Origin: Candidatus Poribacteria bacterium
GTDB taxonomy: Bacteria > Poribacteria > WGA-4E > WGA-3G
Direction: 5' to 3'
Length of the DNA stretch: 64,000 nucleotides
Assembly (NCBI GenBank): GCA_965197475.1
Contig: CBDANF010000003.1
Coordinates: forward strand, 3,296,001-3,360,000
The notes beneath the pieces were generated by a model, which worked only from the letters and a program-made list of their open reading frames with translations, made no database searches and had not been told where the DNA came from. Positions within the stretch are counted from its first letter, which is position 1, and each line of letters starts with the position of its first letter. This document shows, piece after piece, positions 20,292 to 24,242 of the stretch. The translations under genes and the position numbers were made by a program.

Positions 20292-20466
20292 TATTCTATA
20301 TCAAATCAACGCCCAATGCGCGTTTAGCATGAGTCGCCTCTCCCAAGGCGAGACCTTGAGGTTAGAAGTTTCTCACCAGTCTTTTCCCATTTACGTAATG
20401 TGGCAGGCGTTGAACCAATGAGTTCTGCAGCCTCACCAATCTTTACTAATCTGTTTTCCATCGTTT

Positions 20467-20608
20467 GTAGGTGCGGTTAGATGAAGATAAAAAATAATTC
20501 GGTAATTTTCTTGCAATGCTCGGTGCGGTTAGGAAACCGCACCTACCGGTAATGGAGAAAATTAGAATTACCGAATTAATAAATTAATCTTCATGAAACC
20601 GCATCTAC
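20467..20608. repeat. REP-like palindrome interrupted by a 114-bp family E element (20481-20594)
   Basis: GTAGGTGCGGTTAG | ATGAAGAT...ATCTTCAT | GAAACCGCATCTAC. Confidence 0.8.
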
Positions 20609-20724
20609 TGTTTTGCGTTATTTATAGTTTGTATCAAATGACCCCATGAGTTATACTATTAGTATTCGTTAAACTAACGAGTAGATGTCCTCGGATCCCC
20701 GATAATCTATTCATGGAGGTCAAT

Positions 20725-21525
20725 ATGAACCGCAAGAAGGATACCGCTTACGGTATCACTCGGCTCGAATCCAAGAATGCCAGAGCCGCGATTATTCAGA
20801 AGATTTCAGCAGACTTTAATCTAATGCCTCTCGTTGCTGAAGCCTACTATAAACAGATTTCCACCTACTTTGAACAACACGCCGATGTGCACCTGACATC
20901 AGGGCAAATCTGCTACGAGGCAGTCGCCGCAGAGGAACCCGCAGGTAAACATATCGCTTTAGCGAAAAAAGTTTCCTGTCGGCTAACTCTCAATGACACA
21001 AACGCCGATCTTGAAGTCTTAGCGAATTATGGTCTCGCAGGACTCAGACGGCATCGGATCCTCCGATTGACCCAAGAAGCTTATGACCAAGATGCCTTAC
21101 TGAGCTACGAGGATTTAGCTGTATTATTAACCACCAGTCCTGCTACAGTCAAACGCGACATTCGACACTTGAAGCAGGATGGGTATTTCGTTATGACGCG
21201 CGGGACGAAACACGACATGGGCCCCGGCACTTCTCATAAAACCCAGGTCCTGGAGTTATATTTCAAAGCCTATACCTTCACCGAAATCGAGAAAAAGACG
21301 AACCACAGCGAACGAGCTGTCTACCGCTACTTGAAAGACTTTACACAAGTCGCTACGCTCCATCATCAAGGCTTTCCTAACGCACAGATACGCCTGATCA
21401 CCCATCTATCTGACCGGTTGATCCGCGAGTATCTCTCACTCTATGAGGAATACCAACACACAGATCGCATAACCCAACTCCTTCACCCAGAACCTGAGGA
21501 CACAAAAAAGGGGGACCTCTCATGA
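20725..21525 (+). CDS. DUF1670-like HTH protein A
   Basis: GGAGG RBS, ATG 20725. RILRLTQEAYDQDALLSYEDLAVLLTTSPATVKRDI...TRG..HDMGPGTSHK...HSERAVYRY. Confidence 0.8.
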   Translation: MNRKKDTAYGITRLESKNARAAIIQKISADFNLMPLVAEAYYKQISTYFEQHADVHLTSGQICYEAVAAEEPAGKHIALAKKVSCRLTLNDTNADLEVLANYGLAGLRRHRILRLTQEAYDQDALLSYEDLAVLLTTSPATVKRDIRHLKQDGYFVMTRGTKHDMGPGTSHKTQVLELYFKAYTFTEIEKKTNHSERAVYRYLKDFTQVATLHHQGFPNAQIRLITHLSDRLIREYLSLYEEYQHTDRITQLLHPEPEDTKKGDLS

Positions 21526-22406
21526 GCAAACCTCTAACCCGCACGCAAATCAACGAGAAGAAATTCAGACGCATCAACGATAAGTCCCTACGACAGTTGC
21601 TCATTCACCGCTTTCTCAATGACTATGGTTATGACAAAGGCGAAGTCACTGCCACCGCCATTGTTGATGATATTCTTAAGACCGTTGAAGACTATTTCGT
21701 GATTACCCTTCCTTTGGAGAAACTCGCCACCGGCGATCAACTCCCGGATGAGCGTTTCTTGAGTTATGGACAACTCGTTTGGATGGCCGTCCCTATTGAA
21801 GAGCATCCAGAAAGAGGAAAGTCCATCGTCAAAACCCGCATGAAACCCGTCATCCTGACTTACCTCGCCGCAGAGGATATTGAATCCTTTCGCAACGGTT
21901 TCACCTCCCGGCAATTGCGGATCAATCGCTTGGTCCGCTGGTGTCATCAAGCTTATGACCAAGGGGCATTATTGACACAACTCGACTTGGCAGTTTTGCT
22001 CAATGTCTGCGATGCCGTTGTCTGTGATTATGTTAATGAATGGCAAAAAACCACTGGAGAACTCTTGCCCACCCGTGGCAATATCCATGACTTATCGGGG
22101 GCTATTACCCATAAGAAAGAGATCATAACCCTCTATCTTCAAGGACATCTCACCCCCAGGATTGCCGCAAAGACCAAACACTCTAAGGAGGCAGTTGACC
22201 GATACATTCGCGATTATGAGAGCGTCAAAGTCGTTCGGAAAGCAACCGCAGATATTGATAAAATCTCACAGATTACACGACTTTCTAAACGCGTCATCTC
22301 TCAATATCTCGACCTCATACCGCAGCACCAACTCCAAGCCATAGATGCAGACCTTGCCAATTCAGACTCAAACGATGAAGCCACTCACCAAGGAGAAGCC
22401 CAATGA
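21522..22406 (+). CDS. DUF1670-like HTH protein B (paralog of A)
   Basis: ATGA overlap with A. RLVRWCHQAYDQGALLTQLDLAVLL...PTRGNIHDLSGAITHK...HSKEAVDRY. Confidence 0.8.
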   Translation: MSKPLTRTQINEKKFRRINDKSLRQLLIHRFLNDYGYDKGEVTATAIVDDILKTVEDYFVITLPLEKLATGDQLPDERFLSYGQLVWMAVPIEEHPERGKSIVKTRMKPVILTYLAAEDIESFRNGFTSRQLRINRLVRWCHQAYDQGALLTQLDLAVLLNVCDAVVCDYVNEWQKTTGELLPTRGNIHDLSGAITHKKEIITLYLQGHLTPRIAAKTKHSKEAVDRYIRDYESVKVVRKATADIDKISQITRLSKRVISQYLDLIPQHQLQAIDADLANSDSNDEATHQGEAQ

Positions 22407-22473
22407 GACCCTAATCCTATGTTCCCGACGAACTTTACTTCGCAAAACCGGGGCAGGTGCCTTGAAAATATGG

Positions 22474-22502
22474 TTGACAACCGCTACTGGTTTTGCTATA
22501 CT
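22474..22502 (+). promoter_or_regulatory. Near-consensus sigma70 promoter in the right end of the DUF1670 element
   Basis: TTGACA (22474-22479)-17 bp-TATACT (22497-22502), with TGn extended -10. Confidence 0.7.
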
Positions 22503-22508
22503 TTAGAC

Positions 22509-22634
22509 ACGTTTATCGCTAAACGCATCATTTCTCAAAGAGGATGCTCGCGATCCCAACGCAACCCACTCATCAACGATCGCTGGGAAGCCAATAAACA
22601 TCAGCCTTCCAGCTATCCTATGGTCATTTGATAC
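22509..22634 (+). ncRNA. Candidate structured ncRNA (~125 nt)
   Basis: Directly downstream of the promoter; four consecutive hairpins; no credible ORF or RBS. Confidence 0.4.
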
Positions 22635-22882
22635 TATTTCAGAATCAACATTTTGCGCGTAGCCGTGTAATCCCCAGCTTTGAGCATATAGAAATAAACA
22701 CCACTCGCCACGCGTTCACCGATTTCGTTTCTGCCATTCCAATGGATAGCACGGGCACGGCTCCGATACATACCCGCAGGCTGATGCCCTAACGTTATCT
22801 CCCGCACCACGATGCCACGCATATTGAAAATCGTCAGCGACACCTTCGCAGGTTTTGCAAGCTGATAAGGTATCCACGTTTC
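22634..22882 (-). pseudogene. Orphan remnant of a FlgD/T9SS-like C-terminal domain
   Basis: ETWIPYQLAKPAKVSLTIFNMRG...VASGVYFY...TRKMLILK*, preceded in frame by TAG, with no start or RBS. Confidence 0.8.
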
Positions 22883-22901
22883 CTACCGCTATTGTTAGAA
22901 A

Positions 22902-24242
22902 TTATTCTTGCACTTTCAAATCTGCCCAACTTGTAGTCCGTTTACCTTTCGCAGACACAAGACCTTTTAATCGAACAGTTGCTAACCGTTCCTGTTCCCC
23001 AGCATGCGACACATCTTCTATCCGATAATAGTAGAAGGTATTCGGTTTAGCGGTGGTATCTGTCCACGTGTATTCATTGCGTTCACCTGTAGTGCCAGCA
23101 CCTTGAATGAGTTCGGTGTTGACAACTTTGAATTCACCGTCCTTTGTTGGACTGCGGTAGATGTAAAAACCCGCGTTATCTACCTCCGACTCCGTTGTCC
23201 ATTTGAGGATAATGCCTGCATCGGTGTGTTCGGCACTGAAATGGGATAGGGTAACTGGCAATGCTTCCCTGCGACTTTTAAGATAGATTTTTATACCCGG
23301 ATTCTGTTCCAATAGCGCGAGGAGCGGTTTTCGGTTCTTAATCGGATTGTCGTAAACGTATAATGTTTTGAGATTTGTGAGTTCTGTGAGGGGACTCACA
23401 TCACTAATTTGGTTGCCATAAAGCCTTAAACTCGTGAGATTTGTCAACGCAGCGAGTGGGCTAATGTCCGTGATTTGATTGTTAGCAAGATCTAAACTTG
23501 TCAGATTTGTCAACGCAGCGAGTGGGCTAATGTCCGTGTCCGTGAGTTGATTTTTAGAAAGACCTAATCCTGTCAGATTTGTCAACGCAGTGAGTGTGCT
23601 AATGTCCGTGAGTTGGTTGCCATCAAGCCATAAACCTGTCAGATTTGTCAACTCAGTGAGAGGATTTATGTCTGCGATTTGATTATGACGAAGCAATAAA
23701 CTTGTCAGATTTGTCAACTCGGCGAGCGGACTGATGTCCGTGATTTGATTAGTGCTAAGGTATAATGTTGTTAATTTTGTTAGCCCTGATAGTGGTGTGA
23801 GATCACTCACGTTATTGCCTCCCATTTGTATATACTCCAGATTTATCAATTCTGCCAAGGGTTTGATGTCCATGATTTCATTAGAAGCCATCTGTAAGTA
23901 TGTTAATTTTGTTAGCCCTGATAGTGGCGTTATATCGCTAACTTCCGTACGATGGATGTCAAGTCTTGTCAAATTAATTGCGTATTCAAGCCCTATAATG
24001 TTTTTTTCTCTGTCAGCACCGGGCTTAAGGACAACGATGTCAAGTTCCGTTAACCTTTCCATATCCTGTTTTGTGATTATGCAATTAGATGGCTTATTAA
24101 ATACTTTACAAAGTCTCGCTTTTAAAGTTGGGTCCGGTATTGAAATCTCTTGGGCTGCCGTTTCTGACACAAAACCGTTTGGTACAAACGCAAGTGTTAC
24201 AAAGATGAGGAGTGTCAATGTGAAATAGCGTTTCGTTTTCAT
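22902..24242 (-). CDS. Secreted internalin-like LRR protein with C-terminal Ig/FN3-like domain
   Basis: AAGGAG RBS; signal peptide; 22-aa repeats NQITDISPLAALTNLTSLxL; LPVTLSHF...WTTESEVDNAGF; tail KGKRTTSWADLK. Confidence 0.9.
   Translation of the reverse strand: MKTKRYFTLTLLIFVTLAFVPNGFVSETAAQEISIPDPTLKARLCKVFNKPSNCIITKQDMERLTELDIVVLKPGADREKNIIGLEYAINLTRLDIHRTEVSDITPLSGLTKLTYLQMASNEIMDIKPLAELINLEYIQMGGNNVSDLTPLSGLTKLTTLYLSTNQITDISPLAELTNLTSLLLRHNQIADINPLTELTNLTGLWLDGNQLTDISTLTALTNLTGLGLSKNQLTDTDISPLAALTNLTSLDLANNQITDISPLAALTNLTSLRLYGNQISDVSPLTELTNLKTLYVYDNPIKNRKPLLALLEQNPGIKIYLKSRREALPVTLSHFSAEHTDAGIILKWTTESEVDNAGFYIYRSPTKDGEFKVVNTELIQGAGTTGERNEYTWTDTTAKPNTFYYYRIEDVSHAGEQERLATVRLKGLVSAKGKRTTSWADLKVQE

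Follow-up and report, generated by a model that had tools for sequence, protein, structure and literature searches.

To our knowledge, all known prokaryotic transposases belong to a few enzyme classes, namely DDE, DEDD, HUH, serine and tyrosine. Insertion that is both site-specific and free of target duplication is characteristic of the insertion sequence (IS) families IS200/IS605, IS110/IS1111 and IS607. Here we describe a 2016-bp unit in a genome of Candidatus Poribacteria, located in a stretch of 64,000 nucleotides that we refer to as the window. The unit carries only two genes, A and B, which encode paralogous proteins of the DUF1670 family. Its behaviour appears closest to that of the three families named above, while its machinery matches none of them. 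With confidence only slightly above even, we favour reading the unit as one copy of an autonomous IS from a family undescribed in the libraries searched, among which ISfinder was not included, with A and B together acting as its putative recombinase.

The parallels with described systems are specific, as are the differences. IS200/IS605 elements, which use the Y1 HUH transposase TnpA, insert without duplication, in strict orientation and directly 3' of a short motif, which remains part of the left flank. Their right end mimics the target motif, as is the case here (YTAYTT| on the left, CTATTT| at the right end), and hairpin loops can be their targets. Unlike them, the present unit encodes no HUH/Y1 domain or fold, has inverted repeats rather than dissimilar subterminal hairpins, encodes two helix-turn-helix (HTH) proteins rather than one TnpA of ~150 amino acids, and recognizes a target much longer than 4-5 nt. 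IS110/IS1111 elements, which combine a DEDD transposase with a bridge RNA and in some cases target repetitive extragenic palindromic (REP) sequences or attC sites, share with it a sequence-specific, oriented insertion into repeated genomic sequences with no or minimal duplication, and an outward promoter that could work across a circle junction. In contrast to these elements, the unit possesses inverted repeats and has no DEDD/RuvC-like domain, conserved structured RNA or Rfam match. IS607-type elements, large serine recombinases and tyrosine-recombinase integrative elements also integrate conservatively, site-specifically and without duplication, with orientation set by an asymmetric core; here, however, no Resolvase or Phage_integrase domain or fold is present and the target is conserved on one side only. 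Finally, recombination is directed by a small element-encoded HTH protein in Xer-exploiting elements that carry an HTH activator, and repeats are bound by multi-HTH proteins such as Cbp1. The present unit differs in that it targets gene ends and REP-like loops instead of a chromosome dimer-resolution site, and the homology is below threshold.

The features that define the unit and its insertion site are as follows.

20624-22639, plus strand: the whole element, 2016 bp (ATAGTTT...TATTT), with limits common to 18 full-length and 2 deleted copies and a junction fixed by empty REP-like sites in a sister genus.
20624-20643, plus strand: the left end, made up of the terminal ATAGTTT (20624-20630) and the 13-bp left inverted repeat GTATCAAATGACC (20631-20643), invariant in an alignment of the elements of g1, G035, G026 and G034.
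22622-22639, plus strand: the right end, made up of the 13-bp right inverted repeat GGTCATTTGATAC (22622-22634) and the terminal TATTT (22635-22639).
20618-20623, minus strand: the target-derived hexamer TTATTT, outside the element, which reads AAATAA on the minus strand and is the original Lys codon and stop of the interrupted gene.
22634-22843, minus strand: the target, the 3' end of a gene for a C-terminal sorting domain (...YTATRKMLILK-stop; Pfam FlgD_ig, 32.1 bits), whose stop codon is now formed by the last bases of the element.

The unit is a mobile element, present in multiple copies, patchy among relatives and with empty sites. The host genome (5.7 Mb, 3 contigs) holds 18 full-length copies of the 2004-bp segment bounded by the inverted repeats, at 92.1-100% identity, together with 2 internally deleted copies, all with identical end points and differing flanks. 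Chance is excluded, since 2004 bp recur 18 times in full length and twice in deleted form with the same end points. One deleted copy is a 432-bp derivative at C3:94120-94551 that retains both ends, and the other lacks positions 68-301. The unit thus shows several attributes that define an IS: multiple copies with identical ends in different contexts, in other genomes as well as this one, terminal or subterminal inverted repeats, and empty target sites. For a further attribute, a transposase of its own, the DUF1670 pair is the only candidate. Elsewhere in the host genome, the 9-mers of the element ends match only in unrelated contexts, and no other element with the same ends was found there. 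Across the family, units measure ~1.75-2.0 kb and have short inverted repeats a few bases inside each end.

Alignment of the flanks places the limits of the element outside the inverted repeats. In all 20 copies, the left repeat is preceded by ATAGTTT and the right repeat is followed by TATTT. The hexamer farther left varies, reading on the minus strand AAGTAA in 9 copies, AAGTAG in 3, AAATAG in 3, AAATAA in 2, AAGTGA in 2 and an odd sequence in 1 (n=20). This spectrum matches that of unoccupied sorting-domain gene ends (AAGTAA 8, AAATAA 4, AAGTAG 3, plus others), and the hexamer is therefore target DNA and the element spans 20624-22639. In Ignavibacterial relatives, AAAGTTTAGGTCATATGACC occupies the position of the left repeat. 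Across phyla, no part of the element's DNA is better conserved than the right end, which has CTATTT in 60 of the 61 relatives tallied and CTATTG in 1.

An earlier note, made from the letters of the window, had proposed a mobile element with exact 13-bp inverted repeats, two paralogous DUF1670 genes with an ATGA overlap as its only cargo, no known transposase and no target duplication. These proposals are borne out by the repeats themselves at 20631-20643 and 22622-22634, confirmed from the sequence, by the open reading frames (ORFs) at 20713-21525 and 21522-22406, by BLAST copies at different loci with identical ends, by empty sites, and by the flank comparison and family searches described below. 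The limits it gave, 20631-22634, were too narrow by 7 nt on the left and 5 nt on the right. Its expectation that removing the unit restores a TAA stop stands, by another route than the one proposed: the empty site it reconstructed as ...TTTATAGTTT|TATTTCAG... has to be replaced by ...GCGTTATTT|CAGAATC..., which in gene sense reads CTG AAA TAA.

Insertion is specific in both target and orientation. In all copies, the right end abuts the 3' end of an opposite-strand gene ending ...TRKMLI[LR]K-stop, in a single orientation, and the insertion point follows the penultimate codon of the sorting-domain gene and immediately precedes its final Lys codon. The last six bases of the element, CTATTT, read AAA TAG on the gene strand; with this Lys-stop of its own, the right end substitutes for the displaced one, and the end of the host protein is preserved. 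With a strict regular expression, 17 of the 37 sorting-domain gene ends in the host genome are occupied (all AAATAG) and 20 are empty, while 3 of the 20 copies lie outside this expression. The domain concerned is the C-terminal sorting domain of type IX secretion, as Por_Secre_tail scores above its cut-off in 4 of 4 targets tested (Poribacteria, Ignavibacteriales) and FlgD_ig does so for the window's own target remnant. Only one side of the target is conserved; the other consists of variable 3' untranslated DNA. The window's own target gene is split, in that a 446-amino-acid leucine-rich-repeat gene (22902-24242) and a 69-amino-acid sorting-domain ORF (22634-22843), both within 22634-24242 on the minus strand, lie in different frames with a stop between them, which may reflect either a frameshifted pseudogene or an assembly error.

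Insertion makes no target duplication. A fixed-length duplication of the kind made by DDE enzymes is inconsistent with the empty and occupied hairpin sites described below, which fit none. A 3-bp duplication was considered and rejected, because the left flank shows CTT and the right TTT in most gene-end copies. A 2-bp TT duplication was likewise rejected, because two KSB1 elements end in CTATTG and only the reading without duplication restores the canonical ...K-stop. For the window copy itself, no usable orthologous empty site was found among 40 genomes of the genus, the best outside matches being 78-81% identical over part of the query only. The flanking gene family is too paralogous for an orthologous empty site, and we therefore relied on paralogous and hairpin empty sites.

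The hairpin sites come from a sister genus, whose element is 77% identical to that of the window and has the same termini. Five of its six copies lie in the loop of a REP-like palindrome. The pattern of this palindrome has 71 and 37 matches in two sister genomes, and a reversed-pattern control has 0. Among the matches listed, most are of the empty form AACCGAGTTTTTTCTTCAAAACTCGGTT, that is AACCGAGTTTTTT|CTTCAAAACTCGGTT, and occupied sites read ...GAGTTTTTT + ATAG...CTATTT + CTTC... These empty sites fix the junction. The G035 target palindrome also occurs in regular arrays, with spacings of ~159, 193 and 352 bp (e.g. C1:3456490-3457154, 1894820-1895426 and 2032412-2033496).

The family extends well beyond the host genome. 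DUF1670 is present in 10 of 40 related genomes besides the host genome, and full elements there always contain the A+B pair, with each genome having 1-4 such pairs. Methanosarcina, included as a control in the genome searches, also gave a signal. When species-representative genomes were scanned, 133 relatives were confirmed, and many Poribacteria genomes proved to be multi-copy. The best 80 loci were kept, and 69 were analysed for their target after omission of 11 with one end undetectable. Among the 69, the target is a sorting-domain-like gene end in 59, a hairpin or the related ...YTCGG in 7, and another sequence or a contig end in 3. Relatives with 61-68% protein identity occur in Ignavibacteria, KSB1, Bacteroidetes, Phycisphaeraceae, Verrucomicrobia and one Pseudomonadota bin, and gene-end sites of the form ...RKMLI[LR]K-stop are again used by Ignavibacteria, Bacteroidetes and KSB1 relatives. 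A tblastn search against a plasmid collection gave no match.

More distant members retain the same organization with ends of their own. One Ignavibacteriales genome carries five copies of the window type and, in addition, a more diverged pair whose inverted repeats differ and whose two copies are 99.7% identical. The Lys-stop of sorting-domain genes is the target of this second type as well, the proximal hexamer being constant (AAATAA) and the distal one variable (AAATAA/AAATAG); the genes of this type are co-directional with the target gene, unlike those of the window type. A further lineage, represented by a cluster representative ~34% identical to B, was found at 4 metagenome loci with different flanks, as ~1.75-kb units that contain only an A'/B' pair and are bounded by their own imperfect inverted repeats. 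Many DUF1670 homologues lie on contigs of about element length, as expected because repeats break assemblies. At one Poribacteria locus (L091, positions ~2909-2929), a copy lies directly against an 18-nt remnant similar to the element's own right end, which suggests repeated insertion into a target regenerated by the right end of a resident copy.

The two genes of the window element are the following.

20725-21525, plus strand: ORF A, a DUF1670 protein of 266 amino acids from its likely start (270 from the ATG at 20713); Pfam PF07900, E 4e-62; HTH_11, E 1e-6.
21522-22406, plus strand: ORF B, a paralogous DUF1670 protein of 294 amino acids, coupled to A via the ATGA overlap; Pfam PF07900, E 1.2e-61.

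Both proteins belong to DUF1670 (PF07900), with 209.9 and 208.3 bits against a gathering cut-off of 25, and they are 35% identical to each other over 192 amino acids. The likely start of A is the second ATG, at 20725, because GGAGG lies six nt upstream, homologues have 266 amino acids and M5 is nearly invariant. The pair is the only cargo, and 15 of the 18 full-length copies keep both ORFs, while 1 has an in-frame A-B fusion and 2 have a broken A. Both genes are under purifying selection: between subfamilies, the ratio of nonsynonymous to synonymous substitution rates (dN/dS) is 0.10-0.13 for A and 0.03-0.07 for B. In one near-identical pair, A reaches 0.29, a value derived from only 4 differences.

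The wider family, to which Pfam assigns no function, comprises >1000 clusters at 50% identity. An A-B fusion of ~564 amino acids occurs both in the host-genome copy at C3:685919-687923 and in a distant Poribacteria element (L104), and database proteins with two (~520-560 amino acids) or three (~930-950 amino acids) DUF1670 repeats exist. No known catalytic domain was found fused to DUF1670 homologues, the longer ones being fusions of A with B or of three DUF1670 units. The one non-HTH domain observed in a fusion is a C-terminal CHC2 (DnaG-type) zinc ribbon in a 400-amino-acid metagenome protein (P0216). In the literature searched, 8.4 million papers covered as abstract-level listings, DUF1670 or PF07900 does not occur, and nothing relevant was found on sorting-domain targets, Poribacteria IS elements or new HTH-type IS families.

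Neither protein could be assigned to a known class of recombinase. AlphaFold2 models, built from alignments of 70 and 50 sequences, reach a mean predicted local distance difference test score (pLDDT) of 84.9 for B and 81.9 for A and are nearly all-helical, with a single beta hairpin. In A, the N-terminal part is helical and is accompanied by a winged HTH, a conserved loop and an HTH_23-like module. Pfam matches neither protein to a transposase or recombinase family, the weaker matches being HTH_11, HTH_23, HTH_28 and HTH_29, and NCBIfam, which includes IS transposase models for genome annotation, has nothing near any cut-off for either. The lone IS-model match is IS1 (E 0.056, 13.4 bits against a cut-off of 100), and B has a sub-threshold match to Cbp1 in NCBIfam (E 0.064). 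PADLOC gave 0 families, PHROGs only "transcriptional regulator" (1.2e-5), the ESM Atlas only HTH_23 clusters, below 0.9, and a profile search of the PDB nothing relevant, with one irrelevant match at E 0.7. The best Foldseek matches are winged-HTH repressors, the paired domain and GerE-type HTHs. Class by class, a DDE/rve domain or RNase H-like fold has no Pfam, NCBIfam or Foldseek support; HUH/Tyr motifs on an alpha/beta fold have no Pfam match, and the models are helical; and a Resolvase catalytic domain is absent from the Pfam and NCBIfam matches, the sole Foldseek link being to the HTH part of one resolvase entry (E 1.7). A DEDD domain accompanied by a conserved structured non-coding RNA, as in IS110, was likewise absent from Pfam, NCBIfam, Rfam and the 3' regions of relatives.

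The proteins share a strictly conserved set of residues. In B, H197, H220 and Y228 are invariant across 70 sequences of 25-59% identity, and conservation is at least 90% for R139, R185, G186, D190, G192 and K198; A has the same set, with Y206 as its Tyr. The TRGxxHD motif lies in the loop after the winged HTH, and HSxxAVxRY on the third helix of the HTH_23-like module. By profile-based alignment of the fused proteins, G, D, G, H, H and Y are retained jointly in strong repeats and lost jointly in weak ones. This suggests a functional site rather than base recognition, because the pattern is all-or-none in a family that binds different DNA ends, although it is not proof of catalysis. A prediction of the A/B complex scored 0.23 (mark 0.32).

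Comparison of elements with different targets makes B the candidate target selector. A gene-end-targeting element (L099) and a hairpin-targeting one (L094) have ~90% DNA identity and differ sharply at element positions 1201-1300, inside B. Of the residues exclusive to loci that target hairpins or YTCGG, 13 are in B and 2 in A. Those in B are F15I, T62R, A117P, F123Y, R124Y, N125S, T128S, Q131E, N135H, C163R, A165P, D169E/A and G193A, and they cluster at 117-135 and 163-169; positions 163-169 open the third helix of the winged HTH. The hairpin/YTCGG group consists of six loci assigned by inspection, and the grouping is phylogenetically confounded. E131, H135, R163, P165 and E169 recur in a distant lineage that targets hairpins (L104 and L105); these two loci are fused or incomplete and were checked separately.

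These features can be combined into a proposed mechanism. A and B together would form the recombinase and bind the pseudo-palindromic repeats at both ends, with the conserved Arg/Asp/His/Lys/His/Tyr set as the putative active site. One subunit, probably B via its winged HTH, would recognize ~10-20 bp of the target, all to one side of the insertion point. The pair would then cut and rejoin DNA conservatively, directly after TT, without repair synthesis, which would explain why no target duplication is made. A circular or head-to-tail intermediate is likely, and in it an outward promoter near the right end would cross the junction into A and B.

22474-22502, plus strand: the outward sigma-70-like promoter TTGACA-17-TATACT with an extended -10 TG, ~137 nt inside the right end, with 11/12 consensus matches.

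This is the only coding-strand promoter-like site scoring 11/12, and none was found upstream of ORF A. In the integrated element it would be directed antisense into the host gene. It is retained in Poribacteria elements of differing 3' length. Across lineages, the 3' non-coding part measures between 16 and 292 nt, and outside Poribacteria a terminator-like hairpin takes the place of the promoter. Divergence among copies is blocky or mosaic, with element positions 300-1300 and 1600-1700 diverged in different copies and the first ~300 and last ~300 nt nearly identical among host-genome copies. This pattern points to recombination or gene conversion among copies and is not proof of function for the entire non-coding part.

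Several observations weigh against A and B as the recombinase of an undescribed family. Foldseek gave 0 matches in the PDB at E <= 0.001 for either AlphaFold model (best E 0.94 for B and 0.044 for A), and on their face the models look like DNA binders rather than enzymes. The conserved Tyr and second His are placed on an HTH recognition-type helix, and their conservation could be structural. The correlation between B residues and target reflects one or two evolutionary events, the outward promoter is missing in Ignavibacteria and KSB1 relatives, and the family may have an existing entry in ISfinder, which was outside the comparison. The resemblance of both models to pure multi-HTH binders, without a known catalytic fold, is what would be expected if A and B only selected the site or shaped the complex, and a ubiquitous host enzyme, e.g. 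a chromosomal Xer-type tyrosine recombinase, exchanged the strands. Integrative elements that exploit host Xer exist. Each end has a pseudo-palindromic 12-13-mer, and joining the ends would create two inverted arms separated by a 12-nt spacer; insertion is oriented, conservative and duplication-free; and several phyla carry the element, as a universal enzyme would permit. We nevertheless regard this as unlikely, though deserving serious attention, since the target is conserved on one side only, with no two-armed host recombination site evident there, and since the strict Arg/Asp/His/Lys/His/Tyr conservation and its joint loss in degenerate repeats exceed the need of mere binding. That the unit is non-autonomous, with A and B as passenger regulators and a conventional transposase encoded elsewhere acting in trans, appears very unlikely. 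Such a transposase would account for the 432-bp derivative with both ends and for the lack of a catalytic domain inside the unit. However, no other element in the host genome has these ends, and the A+B pair is constant in Poribacteria, Ignavibacteria, KSB1, the second diverged type and the ~34% lineage, each with its own ends. In addition, purifying selection on both genes is strong, as expected for genes that the element requires, and the sequence of B changes with the target.

Two further explanations place the activity in an RNA or in a known protein superfamily. A transcript of ~135 nt from the outward promoter could guide target choice or catalysis, in the manner of IS110 bridge RNAs or IS200/IS605 guide RNAs, a reading that we consider even less likely than mobilization in trans. 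The near-consensus promoter is retained in Poribacteria elements, the 228-nt 3' part has 0-4 differing positions between copies whose coding synonymous divergence (dS) is 0.05-0.45, and its plus-strand fold has a modest z of -2.16. Yet the minus strand gives an unremarkable z of -1.03, the 3' region shows no conservation across phyla, with lengths down to 16 nt and no promoter outside Poribacteria, and Rfam has no relevant match. A k-mer search found no complementarity of >=8 nt between element and target, of either gene-end or hairpin type (7-mers only), and the blocky divergence means that identical ends may come from recombination between copies. Least likely of all, in our estimate, is that A and B belong to the tyrosine recombinase superfamily as divergent members, a kinship that the earlier note had suggested and that found no support here. 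The conserved Arg, His, Lys, His and C-terminal-side Tyr, the mostly helical models and the conservative, duplication-free insertion are reminiscent of these enzymes. Against this, no Phage_integrase-type catalytic domain or fold emerged from Pfam, NCBIfam or the PDB profile search, the Foldseek matches of neither protein include a recombinase catalytic domain, and the Tyr, as part of HSxxAVxRY, sits within an HTH module.

If A and B are indeed the recombinase, DUF1670 could represent a sixth mechanistic class of transposase or site-specific recombinase, a proposal to which we assign somewhat less than an even chance. Its members would be built entirely of HTH repeats, act as A/B hetero-oligomers or as two- or three-repeat chains, carry an active site of His/His/Tyr and Arg/Asp/Lys between or on HTH modules, and have their target set by a few winged-HTH residues of B. 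Such a system would be protein-programmable and, with the stop codon restored and no duplication left behind, also scar-free; it points to a small, possibly re-targetable integration tool. More generally, an element that is precise, present across phyla and without a known class implies either a new DNA-breaking and -joining enzyme or a new borrowing of host enzymes. The association with a mobile element of defined ends and target is new for DUF1670 and gives this widespread orphan family a testable function. The last codon of sorting-domain genes is an abundant and harmless landing site, conserved over long evolutionary distances, and the element accounts for the many ~2-kb contig breaks in metagenome assemblies.

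Some copies and neighbouring sequences merit separate mention. The copies at C2:1160548-1162551 and C3:845190-847193 share the element and 4.4 kb of left flank at 99.1%, with divergence starting precisely at the right end; within this flank lies what appears, from its N-terminal sequence alone, to be a glutamyl-tRNA synthetase-like gene. This pair represents either a rearrangement at the element or strain variants assembled twice (the contamination estimate of the genome is 6.97%). A second pair, at C2:1472043 and C3:49950, has ~300 bp of right flank in common. In the window, an internally palindromic repeat of ~157 bp (20462-20618), similar to REP sequences or to miniature inverted-repeat transposable elements, adjoins the insertion site on the left and has 49 BLAST pieces genome-wide; its sole Rfam match is a sub-threshold plant microRNA model (E 0.18), i.e. 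just a hairpin. Next to it, at 20324-20461 on the minus strand, lies a 45-amino-acid ORF with only a MerR-type N-terminal HTH (Pfam MerR, 29.6 bits), which looks truncated.

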